Source: Candidatus Multivorans sp. (GTDB lineage Bacteria > Acidobacteriota > Thermoanaerobaculia > Multivoradales > Multivoraceae). Taken from it: 64,000 nucleotides of DNA. A program made the position numbers and the translations under genes. Below the pieces are notes generated by a model. The model was given only the letters and a program-made list of their open reading frames with translations. It was not told where the DNA came from and did not search any database. Below, one piece after another: positions 4,838-61,640 of the stretch. The first letter of the stretch is position 1. Each line of letters begins with the position of its first letter. The stretch is taken from positions 455,787-519,786 of the forward strand of contig OZ242040.1 of assembly GCA_965205095.1 (NCBI GenBank), written 5' to 3'.

Positions 4838-7377
4838 CCGATCCACTCGACGATCTGAAGCGCGTCTTTGACCGCGCGACGCCCGAGCCGGACGCCGAGA
4901 GGCGGAGGGCGAACCTGGCCCGCGCGCAGCAGCTCTTCGACCGGAACCAAGGTCTTGAGGCCGAGCGCCGTCGTACTGACGACCGCCCCAATACCTGGGC
5001 GGGCATTCAACACGGAGTACGACACATGCTCAACGTAGTGACGCCCCGACCTGTCCTGGCTGCCGCCGGCGTCCTGGCTGCCGTCGGCCTTTCCGCGCTC
5101 CTGGTGACGGTGCTTCGGGACGCGACGCCGCGACCGCCGGTGGTCGTCGCCGATGCCGGCGTCGCGCCGGAATCTGTGACCGCGCTTCAGGGCGCTGTCG
5201 AAGAAGATACGGAGGCGACCGACTTGGCCGGCGTGTCCCCAGGTGGAGGCGATCGTCTGGATCAGGCGGAAACCCCTGCCTTCACGGAGCGAGGAGAGAC
5301 GGATTCGGCTACGCCCCGGAGCGAAGTCCCGGTGGCGACGGATGCTGCGGCGTCAGCCCCGGAGCAGGTTGCGGCGGCGACGGTTGCCGGACGCGTGGTT
5401 GACGCCGGGGGCGAGGCTCTGCCGGGCGTCAGCCTTACGCTATCTAGCGACAGCGGCGATTGGTTCGCGCTGACGGACAACAGCGGCGACTATCGCTTCC
5501 CGGATGTCGCCCCAGGAGACTATTCGGTGAAGGCGGAGCTCCCGGGCCTGGGAGAAGCAGATGCCGTGGTTCGCGCTGCGGCGGGAGAGCGAAGATCGAT
5601 CGACTTCAGGTTGAGGGCAGCGGTCACGGGCGGGCCGGAGACCGTCACGGGGATGGCGCCTGTGACTGTCACGGGAGAGAAGCCGATAGTGGACAAGTTC
5701 AACGTTGCGGCCAGCGGCCTGGCAGCGGTCGCCGAAGCGGTGCCGCGCGCCAAACGGGTGCCGCCCGCTGAACCTGTGGTGGAGGCCGAAGCTGTGGTCG
5801 CCGAGTCCCTTGCGAGCGCGTTCGTGCCGCGGCGAGCCGCCCGGAGTGCCGCCGGCACCACCCGGACGTACCACGGCGTGATCAACGCCGCTGAACCGCC
5901 ACCACCGGAGGGTGTTGGTCCGGCGCCGGACGTGACGATCGCCCAGTCCGCCAACACTGAAGCCTTCGCCAACGAAGACGCCAGTCCGGTCAAGGTCACG
6001 AGCGAAGAGCCGGTTTCGACCTTCTCGATCGACATCGACACCGCCAGCTACTCGGTCGTCCGTTCCTCGCTGACGAACGGCTACCTGCCGGCGTCCGAAT
6101 CGGTGCGGATCGAGGAACTGATCAACTACTTCCCGTACGCCTATCCGCCGCCCGAGGGGTCCGGCGCGCCGTTCCGGCCGACGGTGACCGTCTCCGAGAC
6201 GCCGTGGAACGCGGACACGCTGCTGATGCAAATCGGCATCCAGGGCCGGCAGCCGGCGATGGAAGACCGGCCGCCGCTCAACCTCGTCTTCCTGGTCGAC
6301 ACGTCGGGTTCGATGGACCGGCCGAACAAGCTGCCGCTGCTCGTGCAGTCCTTCCGCCTGATGGTCGGCCAGCTCGATCCCGCCGACGAGGTCGCGATCG
6401 TCGCCTACGCGGGCAGCGCGGGCCGCGTGCTGGACCCGACCCCCGCCGCCGATCGCGGCGCGATTCTGGCGGCGCTCGACCGGCTCCACGCGGGGGGGTC
6501 AACGGCCGGGGCGGCAGGCATCCAGTTGGCCTACCGGGTTGCCCGGGACATGGCGGCGGAAGGCGAGGTCACGCGGGTCGTCCTGGCGACCGACGGCGAT
6601 TTCAACGTCGGCATCTCCGACCCCGAGCAGCTCGAGAGCTTCATCGCCCGCCAGCGCGACAGCGGCGTCTACCTTTCGGTGCTCGGCTTCGGCCGCGGGA
6701 ACCTGGACGACGCAACGATGCAGGCGCTGGCCCAGAACGGCAATGGCCAGGCGGCCTACATCGACACGCTCGCGGAGGCGCAGAAGGTCCTCGTCGACCA
6801 GCTTGTGGGCACCCTGTTCCCGATCGCGAACGACGTGAAGATCCAGGTCGAGTTCAACCCGGCCACGGTGGCCGAGTACCGCCTGATCGGCTACGAGACC
6901 CGGGCGCTGAGGCGCGAGGACTTCAACAATGACCGGGTCGACGCCGGCGAGATCGGCGCCGGACACGCGGTCACCGCGATCTACGAGGTGACGCCGGTGG
7001 GCTCGCCCGCCGTGTTGCACGACGCCCTGCGCTATGCCGGTCGCGCGGCCGAGCCGCCGGTGGCGGCCGAGATCCCCGCAGGGTCTCGGGAGCTCGCCTT
7101 CCTGCGGCTGCGCTACAAGGAGCCGGGCCGGGACACCAGCGAACTCGTCGAACTGCCGATCGCTCGCGACGTGGGCGAGGCCGGCGCCGATCAGCGGTTC
7201 GCCGCTGCGGTCGCCGGGTTCGGGCAGTTGCTGCGGGCCGGCGCCTACACCGGCGACTGGACCTGGGCCGACGCGATCGGGCTCGCCGAGGCGAACACCG
7301 GCAACGACCGGTTCGGTTACCGGCGCGAGGCGGTGACCCTGATGCGTCTCGCGGAGAGCCTGGCCGAAGCCGAGTAG
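4837..7377 (+). CDS. membrane-anchored anti-sigma-like protein with a CarboxypepD_reg-like domain and a C-terminal YfbK-type von Willebrand factor A (vWA) domain
   Basis: An ATGA overlap couples it to the sigma factor stop. There is one TM helix (VLAAAGVLAAVGLSALLVTVL), a YfbK-like N-terminal signature (FSIDIDTASYSVVRSSLTNGYLP..VRIEELINYF) and a vWA MIDAS motif (LVFLVDTSGSM). Confidence 0.75.
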   Translation, partial: TDPLDDLKRVFDRATPEPDAERRRANLARAQQLFDRNQGLEAERRRTDDRPNTWAGIQHGVRHMLNVVTPRPVLAAAGVLAAVGLSALLVTVLRDATPRPPVVVADAGVAPESVTALQGAVEEDTEATDLAGVSPGGGDRLDQAETPAFTERGETDSATPRSEVPVATDAAASAPEQVAAATVAGRVVDAGGEALPGVSLTLSSDSGDWFALTDNSGDYRFPDVAPGDYSVKAELPGLGEADAVVRAAAGERRSIDFRLRAAVTGGPETVTGMAPVTVTGEKPIVDKFNVAASGLAAVAEAVPRAKRVPPAEPVVEAEAVVAESLASAFVPRRAARSAAGTTRTYHGVINAAEPPPPEGVGPAPDVTIAQSANTEAFANEDASPVKVTSEEPVSTFSIDIDTASYSVVRSSLTNGYLPASESVRIEELINYFPYAYPPPEGSGAPFRPTVTVSETPWNADTLLMQIGIQGRQPAMEDRPPLNLVFLVDTSGSMDRPNKLPLLVQSFRLMVGQLDPADEVAIVAYAGSAGRVLDPTPAADRGAILAALDRLHAGGSTAGAAGIQLAYRVARDMAAEGEVTRVVLATDGDFNVGISDPEQLESFIARQRDSGVYLSVLGFGRGNLDDATMQALAQNGNGQAAYIDTLAEAQKVLVDQLVGTLFPIANDVKIQVEFNPATVAEYRLIGYETRALRREDFNNDRVDAGEIGAGHAVTAIYEVTPVGSPAVLHDALRYAGRAAEPPVAAEIPAGSRELAFLRLRYKEPGRDTSELVELPIARDVGEAGADQRFAAAVAGFGQLLRAGAYTGDWTWADAIGLAEANTGNDRFGYRREAVTLMRLAESLAEAE

Positions 7378-11082: not shown

Positions 11083-13411
11083 GGAGCTGCTGCTGCCAGC
11101 CGCGCTGGCGCTGGGCGTCTTCGCCTGCGCCGCCGAGCCGGAGGACGCGCCGCCCGGCCTGGTCGAGGCGGATGTCGCACGCCTTCTCGCTGGCGCTTCG
11201 AACGAGCGACCTCCGGTCATCCTGATCACGATCGACACGTTGCGGGCCGACCGGCTGTCGAGCTACGGCTCGGACCGGGTCGCGACGCCGCACCTCGACC
11301 GTCTGGCGGAGGAGGGCATCCGCTTCGCCAACGCGTCGTCGACGGTGCCGTTCACGCTGCCGGCGCACAGCTCGATCATGACGGGGCTCTACCCGCCGTC
11401 TCACGGGGTGCGCGAGAACGTCGGCTACGTGCTGGCGCCCGAGCTGGCGACGATTGCCGAGCGGTTCCAGGACGCCGGCTACCGGACCGGCGGTTTCGTC
11501 AGCGCCTTCGTGCTCGATGCGCGCTGGGGAATCGACCGCGGCTTCGACACCTACGTCGACGACTTCGACCTGGACGCGATGGCGGGCGCCAACCTGGGCT
11601 CGGTCCAGCGGGCCGGCCCGGAGACGATCGCGCACGCGCTGGAATGGCTCGACGGCGTGGGCGGGGAGGAGCCCTTCTTCCTCTGGCTCCACCTGTTCGA
11701 TCCCCACGATCCGTACGACCCGCCGGAACCGTTCCGGTCGGAGTACCAGGGCCGGCCCTACGACGGCGAGGTCGCCTACACCGATTCCCTGATCGGCGAG
11801 TTCCGCGCCGCCCTCGAGGAACGCGGTCTCTTCGATGAATCCGTCCTCGTGCTGACGTCGGACCACGGCGAGGGACTGGGCGACCACGGCGAGAGCTACC
11901 ACGGCTTCTTCGTCTACGACTCCACCGTCCACGTGCCGCTCATCGTCCGGCTGCCCGGCGGCACGGAGCGCGGCCGGGTGGTCGGCGACGCGGTGAGCCA
12001 CGTCGACATCGCGCCGACTCTGATCGAGCTTCTGGACCTCGACGGGGCTGGAGAAGGCCAGGGCCGGAGTCTGCTCCCGGACATGCAGGGACTGCCGAAT
12101 CCTCTTGCCGCACGGAGCGTGTACGCCGAGTCCTTCTACGCGCTCGACCACTACGGCTGGGCGCCGCTTCGCTCGCTGCGCACGGCGGAGCACAAGTACA
12201 TCGAAGCGCCGGAACCCGAACTCTACGCCCTGCTCGAAGACCCGGGCGAGCTCGCGAACGTCCTGCTCGAAGAGCGCGACCTGTCGCGCCGGCTGCGGGC
12301 GGAGGCTCTCGAACTTTCGGCGGAGCTCGATCGGGCGGCCCCGAGTTCCAGCGCGGAACCGGATCTCGACGAGGACACGCTGGCGCAGTTGCGAGCGCTC
12401 GGTTACCTCGCCGGACGCGGTGCCGCCGGCCGGGGGGATTCCGAAAGCCCGCGCGCCGACCCGAAGGACAAGGCCCACCTGCATCGGGCCATCATGCGGG
12501 CGCAAAGCGCCTTCGGCGCCGGCGACGAGGACGCGGCCGCGGCCGAGCTGCGGGCGGCGCTGTCCGAGGACGATGGGCTGCTCGATGCACACCAGCTCCT
12601 GGGCACGATCACGCTTCTCGCGGGCGATCCGGAGCCGGCGATCGGCCACTTCCAGAGCGCGCTGGCCCTCGATTCCGAGCACCGGCAGTCCCTGCTTGGC
12701 CTCGCCAACGCCTACCGCGAACTGGGACGCATCGACGAGGCGGTGGTCGGCTACCGCCGGCTGCTCGAAGTCGCGGGTCAGGACGCGAAGGCGACGATGG
12801 CGCTGGCGCGGATCCACGTCGACCGCGGCGAGCTGAGCGAAGCGGAGCAGGTGCTGACGGCCGCCGCCGAAGGACGCGAACCGCCAGCAGTCGTTGCGAA
12901 CAAGCTGGGCGAGGTGATGGCGCTCCTGGGCCGTAGCGGCGACGCGGAGGCGAAGTTCCGGGAGGCCATCTCATCGAACCCGGAACTCGGCGAGGCCCAC
13001 TTCAACCTGGCCGTTCTGCTGGATGAGTCGGGGAGGATGGAGGACGCGGTCACCGCCTACCGGCAGGCGGAGGAACTGCGCCCGCGCGACCATCGGCCCC
13101 GCTTCAATCTCGGCCGCCTCTACGGCCGGCAGGGCCGCGCGGACCTCCAGATCGAGGCCTACCGCGGCGCGGTCGAGGCGGCGCCGGACTTCACCGTCGG
13201 CTACTTCCACCTGGCGAAGGCCTTGATGGACCACGGGCGGGACCTCAGGGAAGCGGAGACGTTCGCGCGCCGCGGTCTGGAGGGCGAGCCGACCGGTCGG
13301 GACGGCGCGCTCGGTTACTTCGTGCTCGCCGACATCCTGAACCGGCTGGGGAGACCGGCCGAGGAGCGGCAGGCGCTGGCCCGCGGACAGGAACTTCTCG
13401 ACCGCCGCTGA
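11054..13411 (+). CDS. sulfatase-family (alkaline-phosphatase superfamily) enzyme fused to C-terminal TPR repeats; lipoprotein
   Basis: Lipobox signal LALGVFACAAE. Sulfatase core motifs (ILITIDTLRADRL, TSDHGE) are followed by about 350 aa of TPR-like repeats. Confidence 0.75.
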   Translation: MRTASGVGCKELLLPAALALGVFACAAEPEDAPPGLVEADVARLLAGASNERPPVILITIDTLRADRLSSYGSDRVATPHLDRLAEEGIRFANASSTVPFTLPAHSSIMTGLYPPSHGVRENVGYVLAPELATIAERFQDAGYRTGGFVSAFVLDARWGIDRGFDTYVDDFDLDAMAGANLGSVQRAGPETIAHALEWLDGVGGEEPFFLWLHLFDPHDPYDPPEPFRSEYQGRPYDGEVAYTDSLIGEFRAALEERGLFDESVLVLTSDHGEGLGDHGESYHGFFVYDSTVHVPLIVRLPGGTERGRVVGDAVSHVDIAPTLIELLDLDGAGEGQGRSLLPDMQGLPNPLAARSVYAESFYALDHYGWAPLRSLRTAEHKYIEAPEPELYALLEDPGELANVLLEERDLSRRLRAEALELSAELDRAAPSSSAEPDLDEDTLAQLRALGYLAGRGAAGRGDSESPRADPKDKAHLHRAIMRAQSAFGAGDEDAAAAELRAALSEDDGLLDAHQLLGTITLLAGDPEPAIGHFQSALALDSEHRQSLLGLANAYRELGRIDEAVVGYRRLLEVAGQDAKATMALARIHVDRGELSEAEQVLTAAAEGREPPAVVANKLGEVMALLGRSGDAEAKFREAISSNPELGEAHFNLAVLLDESGRMEDAVTAYRQAEELRPRDHRPRFNLGRLYGRQGRADLQIEAYRGAVEAAPDFTVGYFHLAKALMDHGRDLREAETFARRGLEGEPTGRDGALGYFVLADILNRLGRPAEERQALARGQELLDRR

Positions 13412-50985: not shown

Positions 50986-51987
50986 TCGCTCCTCGGGGCG
51001 CTCCTGGCCGGACTGCTCGGGTTGGCGATCCCCGCGGAGGCCCACGAGGTCCGTCCCGGCTACCTCGAACTGAACGAGGTGGAGCCCGGAACTTTCGAGG
51101 TCTTCTGGAAGCAGCCCCGCCGCGGCGCGCTCCTGCTCCTGCTCGACCCGGTACTGCCCGAACATTGCACCGAGACCGCCCGGCACCCGCCGGAGCACCT
51201 GGCCGGCGCCCTGGTCGAACGCTGGACCGTGGAGTGCGAGGCGGCGGACGGCGACCCGGACCGCATGTTCCACGGCGAGACCTTCGGCATCGACGGTCTG
51301 GAACGCACCCTGACGGACGTCCTGCTCCGGATCAGCTTCGCCAACGGCGACAGCCTCACCCAGTTGCTCCGGCCGGAAGAGCCCTCGGTCACCGTGGACC
51401 GGGAGGCCGCCGGCAACGCCTGGCCCTACTTCCGGCTCGGCGTCGAGCACCTGGTGTTCGGCTTCGACCACATCCTGTTCGTCATCGGCCTGCTCTTCTA
51501 CGTCCGCGATCCCTGGCGCCTGGTCGGCGTGATCACGTCGTTCACCCTCGCCCACAGCATCACGCTGGCTCTGTCGTCCCTGGACGTCGTCAGGATCTCC
51601 CCCGCGCCGGTCGAGGCGGTGATCGCCCTGTCCATCCTGTTCCTGGCGGTCGAGCTGCTGCGTCCCGAGGATCAGCGATCGCCGATCACGACGAAGAGCC
51701 CGTGGCTCATCGCCTTCGCCTTCGGCCTGCTGCACGGCTTCGGCTTCGCCGGGGCCCTGGCCGAGATCGGCCTGCCGCAACGGGCGATCGCCATGGCGCT
51801 CTTCCTGTTCAACGTCGGCGTCGAGGTCGGCCAGCTCCTCGTCGTTGCGGTGGTGCTTGCCCTGCTGGCCCTGGTCAAGCGAGTCGGCATCGTCGTCCCG
51901 GAACTCATCGTGCGGGCGCCGATCTACGCCACCGGGATCATCTCGGCGTTCTGGTTCGTGGAGCGGATGGGTCGGATCGTCGTCTGA
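50974..51987 (+). CDS. HupE/UreJ family protein (Ni/Co transporter family) with an N-terminal periplasmic extension
   Basis: GTG start and signal peptide. The C-terminal six-TM HupE core contains conserved His motifs (FGFDHILF, LLHGFGFAGAL). Confidence 0.65.
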   Translation: MVSLSLLGALLAGLLGLAIPAEAHEVRPGYLELNEVEPGTFEVFWKQPRRGALLLLLDPVLPEHCTETARHPPEHLAGALVERWTVECEAADGDPDRMFHGETFGIDGLERTLTDVLLRISFANGDSLTQLLRPEEPSVTVDREAAGNAWPYFRLGVEHLVFGFDHILFVIGLLFYVRDPWRLVGVITSFTLAHSITLALSSLDVVRISPAPVEAVIALSILFLAVELLRPEDQRSPITTKSPWLIAFAFGLLHGFGFAGALAEIGLPQRAIAMALFLFNVGVEVGQLLVVAVVLALLALVKRVGIVVPELIVRAPIYATGIISAFWFVERMGRIVV

Positions 51988-52117
51988 TCGAGAAGTCGAC
52001 GCGCCTTCCAGACCCGGCCGGAGCACCCGGCCATGGGAGCCAACAGCGCGGACCTGCAGTGAGATCAGAATCGGAAACCAACGCGAGAACCCGCGTCAGG
52101 AGAGTCAGGAGAGCCCC

Positions 52118-55100
52118 TTGAGGAACGGCCTTGAAGCTGGGAGTCCCGCTGTTTTTCTTGGGCACCAAGACTGGGCGGGCCCAGAGAGCCCACTGGCCGA
52201 CTTCATTCGGCGCGAGACGAAGCGCACGGTCGACTCCTACCGTAGCCAACCGAACCTCGTCAGGGAACACGCGAACCAGGAGCACGACACCGCCCACGGC
52301 GGCTACGCGGACCGACAGATCATCGAGCTCGTGCAGAACAGCGCGGACGCCTTGCTTCGAGCCGAGACCGGCTCCCGCAGGATCAGCATCAGATTGTCTG
52401 GAGGCTGGCTCTACTGCGCGGACGACGGCCTTCCGGTTGATGAGAACGGAGTCACGGCCCTCATGTTCGCCCACTTGTCGAGCAAGAGGGACACCGCAAC
52501 CATTGGCAGGTTCGGCCTCGGGTTCAAGTCGGTGCTCGGCGTCACCGATGCCCCCGAGTTCTACAGCCGTTCCGTTTCGTTCCGGTTTGGCCGGGAACAC
52601 GCGAGGCGAGTGATCGACGCGGCAACCGGGCGCGAGTTCACCGACTATCCGGTTCTGCGGCTTCCCGAACCACTCGACCCGTGTCGGGCCGAAGAGGATG
52701 ACACGCTCGGGGAACTGATGAGCTGGGCGACGAACATCGTTCGCCTGCCGCTCCTTGAGCGAGGAAAGGGGGCTCTCAGACAACAGATCAAGGACTTTCC
52801 GGCAGAGTTCCTGCTTCTCGTCCATCATGTCAGGGAGTTGCACCTCGAAGATTGCCAGTCCGTACGGCGTCTCACGCTTCGTCAACAGGCGGACGAGGTG
52901 TTCGCACTGCTCCAGGCGGACGTCTCGCAGGGAACGGAGGACACCAGCAGTTGGCGCATCTTCCGGACCATGCACACGCTGTCCCAGAGTGCCCGCGACG
53001 ACCGTCGTTCGCTCGACGACAGCAACGAGGTTCCGATCACGTGGGCCGCGCCGCTCGACGGGGGCCGAAACGTAGGACATTTCTGGGCCTACTTTCCTAC
53101 GCGGACGGCGAGTCTCGTCGGCGGCATTCTGAACGCACCCTGGAAGACGAACGAGGACCGCCAGAACCTGCTGCCAGGCCCCTACAACGACGAGATCATC
53201 CGGGCCGGGGCGAAGATGGTCGCTGCCAAGATCGCCGCGCTCCGGACCGAGGACGATCCGGCCCGCCACCTCGACCTGCTGCCGCGCCGACACGAAGCCG
53301 GCGACACGGACCAGGCAGGACTCCTGCGACGCGAACTGTTCGGCCACCTTTCGCGGCGCCCGATCCTGCCCGACCAGAACGGTTACGTGCAGAGACCTGA
53401 CGGGCTGCGCTATCCCCCGAGCGAACTCGCTTCCGGCAACCGGATCCATGACGCCCCGTTCGAACGGTGGGCAGCATACGAGGACCGGCCGACGGATTGG
53501 CTTCACCACGCTGCACTGACCCGCGAGCGGCTCTCCCGAATCGACCGCCTGTATCCGGGCAACCACTGGGAGCCTCGCGCCCCTCGCACCTCTCTGCGGG
53601 AGTGGCTGGAGGCCCTGGTCGAAGGCAGTTCGGGTGAGCAGGCAATCGCCGCGTCGATGGCCGCGATTCGCGCCGCGGAAGCCATTCCCCAGTCGGCACG
53701 CCAAGGGAAGGACCTGGGCAACATCGTCCTGACTGCCGACAACGCATGGAAGGCGGTCGATCCCGACTCGGTCTTCCTGCCTCCCAGAACGGCTTCGGTA
53801 GACGGAGAAGAAGCGTCGACGGTTCACCGGCAACTCGCCGAGGACCCAACCACCAGAACGGCGCTCCGGGCGCTGGGTTTGCGAACGCCAAGCCCCCAGA
53901 GCACGTTCAGGCGGGCGGCCCGCGGGCTAACGGGCAGCCAAGCAAAACCTGCCGACCGGCAACTGAGGGAGTTCTGGAACGCGGCCCGCGAACTGCCGGC
54001 AAAGGAGGCGCTCGCCATTCTCAGAGAGTTCGTTCCGAAGCGGTTCGCCCTGCACCAGGAGGCTTGGCTCCGCCGCCGGTTGCGTGTGCGATCTCGGGCG
54101 AGAATCTGGTGCCCCCTGGACACCGTCCTGCTGCCAGGACCGATCGTATCGGCCAGAGACAATCGAGATCGCTGCGCAACCATAGAGCTCGACTTCCACG
54201 CCCCAGAAAAGGAGTTGCTCCGCGATCTGGGTGCCACGGACCGGCCAGTTGCCGACCATGACCTTCGTTTCGCCACGGGCTACGACGATCACCACGGGCA
54301 ATGCGTGACGGAGTACAAAAAGAGGCCCGACCTACCCCACAGCCCTCGACGCGGATACCTTCAGTTCGGCTCATGGCCAAGAGCGACCGGTCAGCGAGAC
54401 TTCAAGCCGTCCACCGAAGGGGCCGGGCCCCTCGACGTTCTTGCCCGTCTCTCACCCGAGGCAGCCGCCCGCTACACGGACGAGATGCTCAAGCTCGAAG
54501 CGACGTTCAGGCGCTGGACGATGGGACACGACGGCAACAACGGTCGGAACTACCCAAGTGCGAAGTTCTGGTCGTTGACGGTTCCCGTACTGCGAAAGCA
54601 CGGCCGCATCAGGACCTCCGCCGGCGTTGTGCCGTTCAGAGACGCTCTCGGGCCGAACCCGAGGAACGCCGAGGCACAGCAAGCCCTCTGGCAACACGCG
54701 AACGTCGACCGGATTCGAGACACGTTCGACCTTCACGACCCGAGACCGGAGTTCATCGGAGAAGCGGAGCCCGTCCCCCTGACCGACGTCTGGCCGGGTC
54801 TCGCCGTGGTACTGCCGACGAACAGGTCGGATTGCCTGCTGGTTCGCTGCGAGCGAATCTTGGTTGCGGGTCTAGGCGTCGACTGCAGGGCCAGCCACTT
54901 GAGCGTCTACCTCGCCGACTCCGTCGCACACGAGGAAGAGCAGCTTCGGCTGGTCTCCAGGGAATTGGAGCTACATCTCACCGAAGACACATTCCAGCAA
55001 ATCCTCAGCCGGACGACACCCAAGGAAGTCCAGGCCCGCCACGACGCGATCCGCCAGATGTCGTCCGACGCCGACCGGTTGCTGGCAGCCGTCGGCGAGA

Positions 55101-56646
55101 AGGCCCTTCGCAACCGGCTCCCCAAGATGCTGCTCGCCATGCTTGAAGTCGATGGTGGGAATCTGAGCGGCAAGAGGCTTGCGGAGGCGGCCATCGCGAC
55201 TTGGCACACGGACGCACTGCGGCGGCACCGTGAAGCGCTCCACGACCTCGATCCCCCGAAACAGTGGGCCGGATCAAGACGGGCGGTCGCGTTCGTCCAA
55301 GCCCTCGGCTTCACAGAAGACTGGGCCGGCAAGCGAACCCGCAAGCGTGATCCGTGGCTGGAAGTTCGGGGTCCAGAGAGGCTCCCGCCATTACACGACT
55401 ATCAGGAACGGGTAGCCGAGAATCTCCGGACACTGCTGGGAGGCGAAGCGGCCGCTGGAGGCGAACGCCGGGCGATGATCAGCTTGCCGACCGGTTCCGG
55501 GAAGACAAGGGTCGCGGTGCAGGCGATCGTCGAAGCGATACGGGAGGACGACTTCCCCGGTGGAGTGCTCTGGGTCGCTGACCGCGACGAGCTCTGCGAG
55601 CAAGCGGTCGAGGCGTGGCGGCAAGTGTGGTCGAGCATCGGCGACTCCGGCGAGCGCCTGCGGATCTCCCGAGCGTGGGCTGGGCAGGAAAGTCCACGTC
55701 CGTTGACGACGCGGCACGTCGTTGTCGCCTCGATCCAAACACTCCAGGCGCGGCTCGGACACACGGACTACGCGTTTCTGGCGGATCTTCAGCTCGTCGT
55801 CTTCGACGAAGCGCATCGGTCCATCGCACCTACCTACACATCCGTGATGGAGGAAGTCGGCCTGACCCGCTACCAGAAGCCTGACGAGCCGTTCCTAGTC
55901 GGCCTCACCGCCACGCCCTACCGCGGGAGAGACGAAGAGGAGACGGCAAGGCTGGTCAATCGCTACGGGAAGCGACGACTTGACGACGGGGCGTTTCCCG
56001 ATGACGAGCCAATCGCCGTCGTTCAGCACCTGCAGAAGATGAGAATCCTCTCTCAGGTGGACCACGCGACGATCCCGGGCGACACCTTCCGCTTGCGCGA
56101 CGACGACCTTCGGCTCATCCGCCAAGAGGGGCAGAAGGACGGGCGATGGAACCTACCCTGGCTCCCGCAACTGGTAGAAGACCGTATCGCCAGCAGCACC
56201 ACCCGCACGAAGCGGATCCTCGACGCGTTCGAGAACCACATCGAACCCGGCTGGCCAGTCCTTGTCTTCGCCACGTCGGTGGAACACGCGCAGACGCTCG
56301 CCGCGCTCCTAGAGGACCGAAGATCCCGTCGCGCGCCATCAGCGGAGACACCAGGACTGCCACCCGTCACCATGTCGTCGACGAGTTCCGGACGGGGCGC
56401 GTCCAGGCGCTCGTGAACTACGGCGTGTTCCGCGAGGGCTTCGATGCCCCGAAGACCCGCGCGATCCTCGTCGCCCGCCCGGTCTACAGCCCGAATCTCT
56501 ACTTCCAGATGATCGGCCGCGGCTTGCGAGGACCGCGGAACGGCGGTACCGACCGCTGCCTGATCCTGAACGTGGAGGACAACATCGAGAACTTCGGGCC
56601 GAAGCTCGCCTTCTCCGACCTGGACTGGCTCTGGGAACCGCGCTGA
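52118..56646 (+). CDS. giant (about 1500 aa) fusion of an N-terminal GHKL / sacsin-HSP90-like ATPase, an uncharacterised central region and a C-terminal SF2 DEAH-box helicase; a 1-nt frameshift near 56317 splits it across two frames (pseudogene or sequencing error)
   Basis: TTG start after a double AGGAG. Bergerat-fold motifs ELVQNSADA (N box), CADDGLPV (G1) and IGRFGLGFKSV (G2). Helicase motifs I LPTGSGKT, II VVFDEAHR, III GLTATP; motifs V/VI (QMIGRGLRG) lie in the +1 frame, 56318..56646. Confidence 0.65.
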
Positions 56647-56701
56647 GACGTCGGGCCTCGCCGGAAACAGAGGAGACACGTCCGGTGGGGTCAACGTGCA
56701 T

Positions 56702-56784
56702 AACCTTCCGATTGGCCGGCCTACAACCTTTCAATCAGGCGACCCCTAACCTTGCAATCAGACGGCGCCCAACGTTACGATCAG
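56702..56784. repeat. array of 4 direct repeats AACCTTnCnATCAG at exact 23-bp spacing, ending 4 bp before the start codon of the second DUF4143 ATPase
   Basis: Copies at 56702 (AACCTTCCGATTGG), 56725 (AACCTTTCAATCAG), 56748 (AACCTTGCAATCAG) and 56771 (AACGTTACGATCAG). Confidence 0.75.
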
Positions 56785-56788
56785 CCGC

Positions 56789-58126
56789 ATGTCGGCACCG
56801 ATCTTCTACCCGCGCAGTGCCGAGGAGCGCCTGGCCGAAGCGCTGGAAGACTCGCCGGTCGTGCTCATCCACGGGCCGCGGCAGTGCGGCAAGACGACCC
56901 TCGCCCAATACGCCTGCGCTTCGCACGACCCGACCCGGGGCGGGGACCCCGCAGCCTGGAGCGGCTCCCGGCCGACGCGGGGGCCGAGGCACCGGGACTA
57001 CGCCTACATCAGCTTCGACAACGCGGTCGTCCGAGACGGCGCCCGAGCCGATCCCATCGGCTTCGTCGCCGACCTGCCCGAGCGCGTCATTCTCGATGAG
57101 GTCCAGCACGTTCCAAGCCTGTTCGAAGCACTCAAGATGGAGGTCGACCGGCGCCGGGTGCCCGGCCGTTTCGTCCTCACCGGTTCCACCAACGTGCTGC
57201 TCCTCCCGGCGCTGTCCGAGTCCTTGGCGGGTCGCCTGCAGATCGTGCCGCTGCATCCGCTGGCGCAGTACGAACTGGCCGACCCGGCAGTGCGCGGTGA
57301 CTCTTACTCCAGCACCGGATTCCTGAGCACCCTGTTCGGCCACGGATTCGAGGTCCGTCGAACCGAGCGGCTCGGAAGACAGCTCCTCGACCGGATCGTC
57401 GCCGGCGGATTTCCCGCGGCGCTGCTCCGTCCAACCGCCCGACGGCAGGCCGACTGGTATCGCGACTATGTCGAGACGCAGATCCAGCGCGACGTTCGCG
57501 ATATGACGCGCATCAGATCGCTCGACGCTCTGCCCGCACTCCTTGGTGCGACGGCATCGCAGACGGCCAGACTGTTCAACCTCAGCGACCTTGCAGCGCC
57601 CTTCAGCCTGAGTCGACCGACGATCGGCGACTACATCACGCTTCTCGAGAGGCTCTTTCTGCTGGAACGACTCCCGCCCTGGCACAGCAACCGGCTGAGC
57701 CGGCTGATCAAGACCCCCAAGCTGCACGTCGGCGACACGGGCCTTGCCTCGGCGCTGCTGGGCATTGATGCCGAATCGCTCAACGCCGACCGCTCCCTGC
57801 TGGGACGGTTTCTGGAGACGTTCGCCTTCCAAGAACTCCGACGCCACGCAAGTTGGCACGACCCGTCCATGAGGTTCTTTCACTTTCGCGACAAGGAAGG
57901 CGCCGAAGTGGACATCGTGATCGAGCGCGGCTCACGGTCAATTGCCGGAGTGGAGGTCAAGGCCGCGGCCACAGTCACACGGGCTGACTTCCGGGGTCTG
58001 CGAAAACTCGCCAGAGCCGTCGGCAAGCGCTTCGTCCGCGGAGTCGTGCTCTACGACGGCGAGGCCAGTACGGGTTTCGGGGATGGCATGTACGCAGTGC
58101 CGGTTCGCAGGCTGTGGGAAATGTAG
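56789..58126 (+). CDS. AAA+ ATPase with C-terminal DUF4143 (COG1373-type), paralog of 33796..34950
   Basis: Walker A LIHGPRQCGKTTLA, Walker B VILDEVQ and the same C-terminal block (KTPKLHVGDTGLASALLGI). It carries an extra about 25-aa Gly/Pro/Arg-rich insert after the Walker A. Confidence 0.75.
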   Translation: MSAPIFYPRSAEERLAEALEDSPVVLIHGPRQCGKTTLAQYACASHDPTRGGDPAAWSGSRPTRGPRHRDYAYISFDNAVVRDGARADPIGFVADLPERVILDEVQHVPSLFEALKMEVDRRRVPGRFVLTGSTNVLLLPALSESLAGRLQIVPLHPLAQYELADPAVRGDSYSSTGFLSTLFGHGFEVRRTERLGRQLLDRIVAGGFPAALLRPTARRQADWYRDYVETQIQRDVRDMTRIRSLDALPALLGATASQTARLFNLSDLAAPFSLSRPTIGDYITLLERLFLLERLPPWHSNRLSRLIKTPKLHVGDTGLASALLGIDAESLNADRSLLGRFLETFAFQELRRHASWHDPSMRFFHFRDKEGAEVDIVIERGSRSIAGVEVKAAATVTRADFRGLRKLARAVGKRFVRGVVLYDGEASTGFGDGMYAVPVRRLWEM

Positions 58127-58190
58127 TGACGACGCGCGGGCGCTAAGATGACGCTTCCGTCAACACCGCAGCGACAGTGAAGGGAGCCCC

Positions 58191-59775: not shown

Positions 59776-60276
59776 GTGACGAAGCACCCATCGACCCGCG
59801 CCCTCCCGATGGCCTGCGTTCTGCTGGCCGCCGTGTTCGCACCGGCCGCCGAGGCTCAGCCGACCCGGCCGATCTACCCGGTCTACGAGGGCTACGTGCC
59901 GAACGACGACGGCACCGCGGTCCTCGTCTTCGGCTACTTCAACCACAACTCGGTCGCGGTCGAGATCCCGGCGGGAGAGAAGAACGGCTTCGATCCCGGC
60001 CCGCTGGACCGGGGCCAGCCGACGGTCTTCGAACCGGGCCGCCAGCGCAACGTCTGCCTGGTCGTGCTCCCGGCCGACCACGAGGGCAACCTGAGCTGGT
60101 CCGTGACCGTGGCCGGCAACACCGGGAAGACGACGGAACGCGGCGGGATCGATACGCTCTACCTGATCGAGAACATCTCCATGGCCTACCACCTGGCAAG
60201 GCGCGTCGACACCGCCACCGCCGACCACGGCGTCTGCGTCGAGCCGGAGCCGGCCACGACCGGGAGCGAACGATGA
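59776..60276 (+). CDS. secreted hypothetical protein
   Basis: Signal peptide (ALPMACVLLAAVFAPAAEAQ). Translationally coupled (ATGA) to the downstream gene. No family recognised. Confidence 0.45.
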   Translation: MTKHPSTRALPMACVLLAAVFAPAAEAQPTRPIYPVYEGYVPNDDGTAVLVFGYFNHNSVAVEIPAGEKNGFDPGPLDRGQPTVFEPGRQRNVCLVVLPADHEGNLSWSVTVAGNTGKTTERGGIDTLYLIENISMAYHLARRVDTATADHGVCVEPEPATTGSER

Positions 60277-61640
60277 AGAACGCACTCCCCCTGTTGACTC
60301 CCGCAGCGATTCTGGCCCTCGCGTTCCTTGCCGCTCCGGCTGCCCCGCCGGCCGCGGCGGCCGACGCGGACACGCCGACGTTCAGCCGCGACATCGCGCC
60401 GATCTTCCAGCGCTCCTGCCAGCGCTGCCACCGGCCCGAGACCGCCGCGCCGATGTCTCTGATCACCTACGAGCAGATCCGGCCCTGGGCACGGTCCATC
60501 CAGCGCCGCGTCGAGTCCCGGCAGATGCCGCCCTGGCACATCGACCGGACGATCGGCGTCTACGAACCGGACCCGAGCCTGAGCGACGAGGAGATCGCCC
60601 TGGTCACGGCCTGGGTCGACGGCGGCGCCCCGCGCGGCAACCCCGCCGACCTGCCGCCGTCGATCGGGTGGCCCGACGGTGACGCCTGGGAGTACGGCGA
60701 ACCCGACCTCGTCGTCGAGATGCAGGAGGACATGGTGGTGCCGGCCGAGGGCCCCGACCTGTTCGTCAACTTCATCGCGGACACCGGCCTCACCGAGGAC
60801 CGCTACATCCGCTGGATCGAGGTCAAGCCGAGCAAGGCGGGCAGGCCGACGGTCCACCACACGATGGTCTACGCCATCCAGGACGACGCGGAGTACGTCG
60901 GGGAGGACTTCTTCGAGCGCGACGACGACCCGAACCGTCGCGACGCCGACGGCAACCCGGTCGGCTCACTGCTCATCGAGTACGCGGTCGGCAACACGGG
61001 CGACGTCTACGCCGAGAACACCGGCAAGCTGCTGATGGCCGGCGCCAGAATCCGTTTCAGCGGCCACTACCACTCACTCGGCGAGGAGATCCGCGATCGC
61101 CAGCGGGTCGGCTTCGGCTTCTACCCCAGGGGCGTCGTGCCGAAGCACCGGATCGTTTCCACCCGGCTCTTCGCCGGTTTGCCCGGCAACCGCGGCTGGC
61201 GCAACAACGAACTCTCCATCCCGCCCGGCGCCGACAACGTCCGCCACGACGGCTACCGCGTGCTCGACCGGCCGATTCAGTTGATCAGCTTCCAGGCCCA
61301 CATGCACTACCGCGGCAAGGGAATGGAACTCGAGGCGATCCACCCCGACGGCCGCCGTGAACTGCTGACCCGGATTCAGGACTACGACTTCAACTGGCAG
61401 ATCGCCTATCCCTACAAGCACCCGCCGGTCTTCCCCGCCGGCACCGTCCTGCACGTGACCTCCTACCACGACAACTCGGAGAACAACCCCTACAACCCCG
61501 ACCCCACCGCCTGGGTCGGCTGGGGCAACCGAACCGTCGACGACATGGCGATCGGCTGGACGAACTTCGTCTTCCTCACCGAGGAGGACTACGAACAGCA
61601 CACATCGGCGGCCGCAACGGGGACCGGGGCCGGCGAGTAG
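60273..61640 (+). CDS. secreted protein with an N-terminal PSCyt1-type haem-binding (CxxCH) domain and a C-terminal domain carrying Cu-monooxygenase-like HH / HxH / HxH..M motifs
   Basis: IAPIFQRSCQRCHRPE...RQMPPW..LVTAWVDGGA matches the planctomycete cytochrome-c (PSCyt1) pattern. It is followed by PTVHHTMVY, SGHYHSLGEE and QAHMHYRGKGME. Confidence 0.55.
   Translation: MKNALPLLTPAAILALAFLAAPAAPPAAAADADTPTFSRDIAPIFQRSCQRCHRPETAAPMSLITYEQIRPWARSIQRRVESRQMPPWHIDRTIGVYEPDPSLSDEEIALVTAWVDGGAPRGNPADLPPSIGWPDGDAWEYGEPDLVVEMQEDMVVPAEGPDLFVNFIADTGLTEDRYIRWIEVKPSKAGRPTVHHTMVYAIQDDAEYVGEDFFERDDDPNRRDADGNPVGSLLIEYAVGNTGDVYAENTGKLLMAGARIRFSGHYHSLGEEIRDRQRVGFGFYPRGVVPKHRIVSTRLFAGLPGNRGWRNNELSIPPGADNVRHDGYRVLDRPIQLISFQAHMHYRGKGMELEAIHPDGRRELLTRIQDYDFNWQIAYPYKHPPVFPAGTVLHVTSYHDNSENNPYNPDPTAWVGWGNRTVDDMAIGWTNFVFLTEEDYEQHTSAAATGTGAGE

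Follow-up and report, generated by a model that had tools for sequence, protein, structure and literature searches.

The window analyzed here is a stretch of 64,000 nucleotides (nt) from Candidatus Multivorans sp. (contig OZ242040.1), and our subject is a giant gene on its plus strand. This gene shares a two-gene island between hupE and abgT with a second gene coding for an AAA_14 + DUF4143 ATPase (Table 1). A model working from the sequence alone had described the giant gene as a frameshifted fusion of a GHKL ATPase with a superfamily 2 (SF2) helicase, and had placed it in a candidate island ahead of a DUF4143 ATPase gene. We refer to this description as the original prediction.

Table 1. Coordinates of the giant gene, its parts and its island in the window
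Feature	Position	Strand	Basis or remark
Giant GHKL-helicase gene	52118..56646	+	~1,509 codons with one base restored; frame A as sequenced ends at 56416 (1,432 aa)
Shine-Dalgarno-like AGGAG and TTG start of the giant gene	52105..52120	+	Sequence reading; TTG at 52118, six bases past AGGAG
N-terminal module, aa 26-498	52193..53611	+	Sacsin/HSP90-type GHKL ATPase, then transducer-like beta-rich domain with invariant NAPWKTNEDRQNLL segment
Family-specific middle region, aa 492-1080	53591..55357	+	Alpha/beta; no detectable relatives
SF2 helicase lobe 1 (ResIII/DEAD)	55391..55924	+	Motif I PTGSGKT, motif II DEAH, motif III TATP
SF2 helicase lobe 2, motifs V-VI (QMIGRGLRG), and highly conserved C-terminal tail	56320..56646	+	Now out of frame
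Single-base deletion, frame shift -1	56318..56323 (placed at 56321-56323)	+	DNA alignment with intact orthologs L001 and L002
AAA_14 + DUF4143 ATPase gene, second gene of the island	56789..58126	+	Pfam DUF4143 6.5e-45, AAA_14 2.4e-22
Two-gene island between hupE and abgT	51988..58135		6.1 kb; empty sites, deviant GC/GC3

The motifs on which the original prediction was built are all present. The three GHKL boxes (ELVQNSADA, CADDGLPV and IGRFGLGFKSV) and the helicase motifs LPTGSGKT, VVFDEAHR and GLTATP lie within one open reading frame (ORF) on the plus strand (51845-56416), and QMIGRGLRG is encoded by a second ORF in another frame of the same strand (56146-56646). Profile searches agree with this reading. 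Pfam ResIII (91 bits, 9.3e-26) and DEAD (1.6e-15) match the first frame, Helicase_C (37.9 bits, 2.4e-09) is seen in the shifted frame only, and the NCBIfam model P_loop_sacsin (NF047352) matches amino acids (aa) 65-149 with 67.5 bits, above its cut-off of 50. The Pfam model SACS reaches 26.4 bits, which is below its cut-off of 32.8. A Bergerat-fold ATPase and a DEAH-type SF2 helicase are therefore combined in a single polypeptide, as predicted. The TTG start codon is common to the public product of the gene (P0001, 1,432 aa) and to an intact ortholog (P0002). This TTG overlaps the TGA (TTGA) that closes a long spurious ORF (51165-52121), and a tandem duplication (GTCAGGAGA GTCAGGAGA, 52095-52113) places two AGGAG Shine-Dalgarno-like elements in front of it.

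The window gene encodes a three-part protein, in which a GHKL ATPase module of the sacsin type is followed by about 600 aa without detectable relatives and then by a DEAH SF2 helicase similar to RadD, HsdR and SauUSI. The GHKL boxes of the N-terminal module (N-box E70/N74/D77, D102xG104 and G130xxG133xG135) are invariant in 26 homologs, and the module has a Bergerat fold in three dimensions. The C-terminal helicase (aa 1090-1509) is of the ResIII type. Its nearest solved structures by sequence are RadD (6jde, 3.7e-22), a putative helicase (7clg, 2.4e-19) and the helicase 1wp9 (3.9e-15), followed by RAD25/XPB (6p66/2fwr, 4.6e-09) and a type I R subunit (3h1t, 1.6e-06). With these proteins the giant shares the two-lobe domain and motifs I, II (DEAH), III and VI, all of which are present, but the accessory domains are entirely unlike those of the giant. 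Both helicase lobes are encoded in one frame in orthologs, whereas lobe 2 is out of frame in the window. Lobe 2 and the tail, which are the parts lost by the frameshift, represent the most conserved part of the family (column identity 0.80-0.89).

The giant gene is an accessory island gene, as judged by its presence or absence in relatives and by its deviant composition. A metagenome scan with AbgT identified two close relatives (L153 and L154) in which hupE is followed by abgT after about 58 nt, with neither island gene in between. The hupE and abgT genes of these relatives are 87-94% identical to those of the window at the nucleotide level. These empty sites set the bounds of the island at the positions given in Table 1. 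Two other relatives (L001 and L002) contain the same two island genes at the same site. Since L001 and L002 are occupied and L153 and L154 are empty, occupancy is polymorphic among relatives of similar distance. The GC content of the island is 0.652 compared with a window mean of 0.683, which falls within the lowest 1% of 6-kb windows. GC content at third codon positions (GC3) is 0.77 and 0.80 in the two island genes versus 0.93 in hupE and 0.95 in abgT. The empty sites make the predicted island much firmer, and the drop in GC is stronger than the slight one noticed by eye. The flanks are also those that had been named: Pfam identifies HupE_UreJ_2 upstream of the giant gene and, downstream of it, the AAA_14 + DUF4143 gene followed by AbgT. 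We found no tRNA, integrase, flanking repeats or target-site duplication at the island. The 58-nt spacer of the empty sites (L153:3943-4000 and L154:8892-8948) contains a direct repeat, CAACCTTGCAAT ... CAACCTTGCAAT, which is replaced by the island in the window. This repeat could be a regulatory or an insertion-target element.

The original prediction had stressed that both activities sit in one polypeptide here. Homology searches show that the fusion is no peculiarity of this locus, since a large unnamed family has the same conserved architecture. In a word-indexed search, 1,853 proteins matched at E ≤1e-10. The best 120 of these cover 94-100% of the query, all with Helicase_C, and are intact except for the window's own truncated product. 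Their lengths range from 1,432 to 1,568 aa with this product included (1,456-1,568 aa for the others), and their identities to the query from 52 to 86% with it excluded. A search of 1.84 billion cluster representatives (clusters at 50% identity) with a profile built on aa 1-1080 gave 696 matching clusters at E<1e-30, rising to 2,974 at E<1e-10. A more distant tier of proteins with ~1,530-1,570 aa matches the first ~820 positions and likewise ends in ResIII and Helicase_C. Among 185,579 species representatives in GTDB, 333 loci encode a relative. These loci are distributed patchily over at least 10 phyla, and the best 80 of the 333 all come from metagenome-assembled genomes (MAGs). Relatives with 46-67% identity occur in Acidobacteriota, Gemmatimonadota, Alpha- and Gammaproteobacteria, Chloroflexota and Acidimicrobiia, and also in Binatia, Latescibacterota, Spirochaetia, Opitutales and Rhodothermales. 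Many records bear names of sponge symbionts (Poriferihabitaceae, Spongiisocius, Poriferisodalis) or bin prefixes such as RHO3, IRC4, COS1 and APA, and one genome note links such MAGs to sponge metagenomes. These record names leave the impression that the family is concentrated in sponge symbionts. Two MAGs encode two giants each (L019/L041 and L078/L079). At locus L067, a weaker second match to helicase lobe 1 (11314-11769, 31% identity to aa 1092-1267) is located ~750 nt downstream of the giant gene, and may correspond to an adjacent paralogous helicase or to a duplicated fragment.

The sole recurrent neighbor of the giant gene in relatives is a small gene directly upstream of it. Of the first four distant homologs that we examined, three have at this position a gene that matches Pfam BrnT_toxin (90.9 bits against a cut-off of 34.5) and overlaps the start codon of the giant gene by 4 nt. 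A hidden Markov model (HMM) built from the BrnT sequences of the family detects the toxin at 31 of 83 loci, in most of which the stop codon of the toxin gene overlaps the start codon of the giant gene by the same 4 nt. The giants linked to BrnT all open with an extra peptide of the form M[KR]xEYDFSxGxRG[RK]F[FY]R...LP. Toxin and peptide occur together at 31 of the 83 loci, are both missing at 49, and are found as peptide only at 3 and as toxin only at none (Fisher p = 1e-19, a value that ignores phylogeny). BrnT-linked forms fall into at least three clades of a neighbor-joining tree.

The extra peptide resembles the beginning of BrnA, the antitoxin partner of BrnT. By a short motif, its best match on plasmids is the N-terminus of a 66-aa gene located just downstream of an annotated BrnT toxin gene on a plasmid of Leptospira noguchii. 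This 66-aa protein opens MRKEYDFSKGKRGVYSRDLKDLHFPVYLD..., and we read the remainder as similar to a ribbon-helix-helix (RHH) domain. Longer BrnA proteins contain a related segment, IDxSDIP...RGRFYKP. BrnTA modules have the toxin gene first, and the C-terminal domain of BrnA is an RHH domain (PMC11980606). Because the RHH domain is C-terminal, the N-terminal segment is the presumptive toxin-binding part of BrnA, an assignment that derives from the position of the RHH domain and not from a structure. At three loci (L017, L046 and L047; around 5800-5950 in the latter two) the EYDFS peptide was observed without a BrnT gene at the search threshold, and a decayed C-terminal remnant of a BrnT gene is present at L017 (5612-5932). 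These peptide-only loci may represent intermediate stages of toxin loss.

A second toxin family is paired with the giant in the same manner, and independently. In four Dehalococcoidia loci (L061, L075, L079 and L084), the gene just upstream codes for a toxin of the HI1419/Gp49 type from the RelE/ParE family (TIGR02683, 126 bits; cut-off 62.85). The giants of these four loci carry an N-terminal extension of ~55 aa that matches positions 3-54 of 89 in TIGR02684, the model of the HI1420 antitoxin (E 1.6e-10 to 2.4e-8). Hence two unrelated antitoxin N-segments occur on the giant, and each is accompanied by the matching toxin. Comparison thus argues strongly that the giant takes the place of the antitoxin in its toxin-linked relatives. 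The coupling to toxins by way of antitoxin-derived N-peptides is the most informative feature of the family.

A toxin together with its cognate antitoxin N-segment is thus found at 31 + 4 of the 83 related loci, and the window copy is not one of them. The window copy and its clade (L001, L002 and L008) contain neither toxin nor N-peptide. A search with an HMM from 34 BrnT sequences revealed no BrnT remnant upstream of the window gene in any of three frames. No other recurrent toxin family emerged upstream of the giants from a scan of 68 candidate ORFs, which returned only UPF0102 (two loci) and a separate PIN gene (one locus). The UPF0102 gene is located just upstream of the giant gene in two loci without a toxin, and belongs to a YraN-type family of small endonuclease-like proteins. 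In a Dehalococcoidia clade without toxin (L065, L081, L054, L070, L073, L074, L067 and L068), the core is preceded by an open frame that starts with a very basic stretch rich in Arg and Lys. Such potentially translated stretches, for instance MSNRRRRKKLKRRHNRK and MARKTKRRKQRLAKKREK, are encoded around locus positions 5800-5950.

Several relatives have defense-type genes beside them, among which are AbiEi/AbiEii, pairs of PIN, HicB and HEPN-MNT genes, and transposases together with an SLFN/AlbA_2 gene. The neighbors of the distant tier include C5 DNA methylases with or without Vsr, UvrD-like genes, NERD genes and MZB/helicase genes. At one locus of this tier, the giant and a UvrD-like helicase gene downstream of it overlap, and at another a pair of Vsr and C5 DNA methylase genes precedes the giant (L150:10602-12419 and L151:3528-5133). 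These arrangements hint that the distant tier relies on methylation to tell self from non-self.

In the window itself, the DUF4143 gene of the island matches the PADLOC candidate defense gene PDC-S01 (PDLC04790) over nearly its full length (E 2.2e-151, profile positions 50-419 of 422); PDC-S01 is itself listed by PADLOC as a candidate only. The repeat array ascribed to the DUF4143 gene did not materialize, as Tandem Repeats Finder and a repeat finder returned only chance pairs. We discarded DUF4143 as an obligate partner of the giant: the two genes are adjacent only in the clade of the window (L001 and L002), and loosely associated at three other loci. Downstream of abgT, an ORF at 60273-61640 shows weak matches to Cu2_monoox_C and to heme-binding/cytochrome c domains (E 5e-5 to 3e-3). 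This ORF is kept downstream of abgT in L001 and L002, where it has no Pfam annotation, and is unrelated to the giant gene.

Among known defense proteins, TmtA of the Tiamat system (PADLOC PDLC03964-03972) is one of the closest to the giant. Both are single polypeptides of ~1,500 aa, and the ~480 N-terminal residues of the giant are homologous to the first third of TmtA (E 4.5e-57 to PDLC03964, positions 9-485). In contrast, the middle region and the SF2 helicase have no counterpart in the TmtA models, and full-coverage criteria of the PADLOC/DefenseFinder style would not name the giant Tiamat. A 2024 preprint places Tiamat among single-gene systems with a PD-(D/E)XK domain, which is undetectable in the giant. 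Human sacsin (SR1) and the HSP90 N-domain are similar in the ATP-binding domain only, and sacsin is a eukaryotic chaperone-like protein without a helicase.

The original prediction had likened the gene to paraMORC-type modules. In 2008, Iyer, Abhiman and Aravind reportedly described restriction-like operons in which MORC and paraMORC GHKL ATPases are linked with nucleases and SF2 helicases. The giant does resemble these in general logic, since an accessory gene of the conflict type joins a Bergerat-fold ATPase to an SF2 helicase. We nevertheless reject the assignment, as the giant does not match HATPase_c_3 and is closer to sacsin and HSP90. It is not a RadD repair helicase either, since the RadD model NF053632 matches the helicase core only, with 103.7 bits where the cut-off is 720. 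Nor is it a standard type I or type III restriction subunit, an identity that the original prediction had named as one that would overturn it: TIGR00348 (hsdR) yields 21.5 bits against 284.55 and PRK11448 yields 36 against 729, which is far below the cut-offs, the island lacks a methylase and the partner genes, and no nuclease fold was found. Toxin-linked relatives resemble the BrnT/BrnA and HI1419/HI1420 modules in that the toxin gene takes the first position and overlaps or abuts the gene behind it, whose product opens with the cognate antitoxin N-segment. In the giant, however, the DNA-binding domain of the antitoxin (RHH or helix-turn-helix) is exchanged for a GHKL-helicase machine of ~1,450 aa. 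A survey of multidomain RelE/ParE proteins (PMC11980606) never mentions a helicase or GHKL partner. In the literature that we searched, the coverage of which was incomplete, we found no description of the family or of BrnT or HI1419 paired with a helicase or GHKL protein.

We then considered the state of the window copy. Alignment of the window DNA (CGAAG-ATC) with two intact orthologs (CGGAACATC and CGGGGCATC; L001/P0002 with 86% and L002/P0004 with 67% protein identity) shows that exactly one base is missing. The sequence past the gap thus continues in the -1 frame. This confirms the predicted one-nucleotide deletion, and corrects both its position (56321-56323 instead of near 56317) and the direction of the shift (-1 instead of +1). 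Restoring one base affords a protein of 1,509 aa that is collinear with the family. The ratio of nonsynonymous to synonymous substitution rates (dN/dS) relative to L001 is 0.27 overall and 0.16 over the 107 codons past the lesion. In columns that are conserved to at least 95%, the window copy deviates only at S1312, apart from the placeholder at the repair site and I1408 (consensus V). The gene family is under purifying selection. Since there is only one lesion, dN/dS is low and the conserved residues are kept, the lesion is either very recent or a sequencing error. Of the alternatives offered by the original prediction, decay or mis-assembly, decay is not supported by these data. Programmed frameshifting was ruled out because the lesion site has no slippery heptamer and the orthologs are uninterrupted.

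We hold it quite possible, if short of probable, that the frameshift stems from an error of assembly or consensus calling and that the organism itself has an intact, functional gene. The single lesion, the dN/dS of 0.16 and the unaltered residues behind it, and the origin of the contig from a 5.1-Mb MAG-type assembly fit this explanation. The missing base is located outside any long homopolymer, the public gene call P0001 has the same truncation, and we found no second assembly of the same island for comparison, all of which speak against it. Decay also does occur in the family: two copies that are otherwise well conserved are interrupted by in-frame stops, a TAG at codon 30 (L019:6040) and a TGA at codon 1013 (L020:9034). 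Since these stops occur in species-representative MAGs, pseudogenization in the family extends beyond the window copy. The window copy thus appears to be freshly inactivated or mis-sequenced. As sequenced it should be non-functional, since the deletion cuts off motifs V-VI and the conserved tail.

What may these proteins do? A defense-type role, as suggested by the original prediction, is plausible. It is indicated by the TmtA-like N-terminal module, the neighboring PDC-S01 gene, the pairing of relatives with toxins, and the defense-type genes near relatives. We lean, by a modest preference drawn from sequence comparison, toward the view that the family provides the ATP-driven nucleic-acid sensor and motor of a candidate anti-phage or anti-plasmid defense. 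The helicase would load on foreign DNA or track along it, with the GHKL module serving as an ATP-operated dimerizing clamp or switch. In the toxin-linked ~40% of the family, the output would be an RNase toxin of the RelE superfamily, BrnT or HI1419/Gp49, that is translationally coupled to the giant from the upstream position. The toxin-binding antitoxin N-segment on the giant (BrnA-type or HI1420-type) would carry the giant in place of the DNA-binding domain of the antitoxin. The giant would keep the toxin inactive until triggered by foreign nucleic acid, and release of the toxin would lead to abortive infection. Since toxin and peptide are both missing from the clade of the window, its members would act through the core alone, either by direct interference with foreign DNA or through an unlinked effector. 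In these steps we infer the defense role, the restraint of toxins by N-peptides, and the division of labor between GHKL module and helicase.

PARIS may serve as a working analogy. In this system, the ATPase AriA sequesters the toxin AriB to achieve abortive infection by a sensor and a toxin. By analogy, the giant is proposed to be a large ATPase that restrains a nuclease toxin and frees it upon sensing an invader. The proteins are unrelated, and the proposed tether differs in that it is an antitoxin-derived peptide fused to the sensor.

Several observations weigh against a defense role. Most homologs are flanked by plain metabolic genes instead of classical defense islands, and the clade of the window has no toxin, methylase or recognizable nuclease. 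Synteny of the locus extends to relatives with as little as 67% protein identity, which would fit a long-resident cellular function as well. Searches of PLSDB plasmids and IMG/VR viral contigs turned up no full-length member of the family. The similarity to Tiamat falls short of membership, since it covers the first third of TmtA only (positions 9-485 of 1538 in the best model and 13-624 of 1782 in the second). The plasmid matches of the BrnA-type peptide are short-motif matches with E values of 2-8 in tblastn. The literature searched contains no report of an experimental test of any member of the family.

Some of these observations suggest a factor for cellular DNA repair, recombination or chromosome maintenance, in which a RadD-like helicase would cooperate with a MutL- or HSP90-like ATPase and the toxins would be secondary addiction modules. 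RadD is indeed the best match of the helicase, MutL and topoisomerases belong to the GHKL ATPases, purifying selection on the family is strong, and the locus is syntenic and adjoined by metabolic genes in related Thermoanaerobaculia-type MAGs. Nevertheless, we consider this explanation quite improbable. The gene is present in some close relatives and absent from others, and has a foreign codon composition. The 333 matches among the species representatives are few and patchy across phyla, and paralogs and pseudogenes exist. The score for the RadD equivalog (104 bits against 720) is low, the N-terminal module is homologous to a validated defense protein family (TmtA), and antitoxin peptides fused to a repair enzyme would be hard to explain. 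Alternatively, the giant could be a restriction-like enzyme, with a diverged nuclease or some other catalytic domain concealed in its middle region. Such an enzyme would perform self-contained cutting dependent on nucleoside triphosphates, as SauUSI or type ISP enzymes do, and the toxins would be optional. This is unlikely in our view. As anticipated by the original prediction, no nuclease domain was recognized: folds of the PD-(D/E)XK, HNH, phospholipase D (PLD), GIY-YIG or other nuclease types were not detected in the giant, despite a confident structural model (mean predicted local distance difference test, pLDDT, 85.7). The invariant columns of the family contain neither HExxH nor D...(D/E)xK, and no methylase is adjacent in the subfamily of the window.

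Returning to the sensor and motor reading, we suggest with some reserve that the family could represent a new class of abortive-infection system. In this class, a GHKL-helicase would have taken over the antitoxin role for RNases of the RelE superfamily by capturing only the toxin-binding N-peptide of the cognate antitoxin, and ATP-dependent sensing of invading nucleic acid, not proteolysis of a labile antitoxin, would free the toxin. The system would have spread horizontally across 10 phyla or more, for the most part apparently among symbionts of sponges, and toxin-less members would correspond to the bare sensor and motor core. The window itself conveys a narrower message, as it contains a toxin-less, frameshifted island copy. 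If the proposed function holds, hundreds of clusters that are annotated just as "DEAD/DEAH box helicase" would constitute a defense module of unusual design, in which a sacsin-type ATPase and a DNA translocase are joined in one chain and a type II toxin has been recruited twice independently by fusion to a piece of its antitoxin. The apparent concentration of the family in sponge symbionts agrees with the reported enrichment of defense genes in that habitat. The family would also offer a testable answer to the question as to how a nucleic-acid sensor can control the toxin of a toxin-antitoxin pair. Through the common N-terminal module it would provide a functional handle on Tiamat, and a bacterial model for the sacsin-type ATPase domain.

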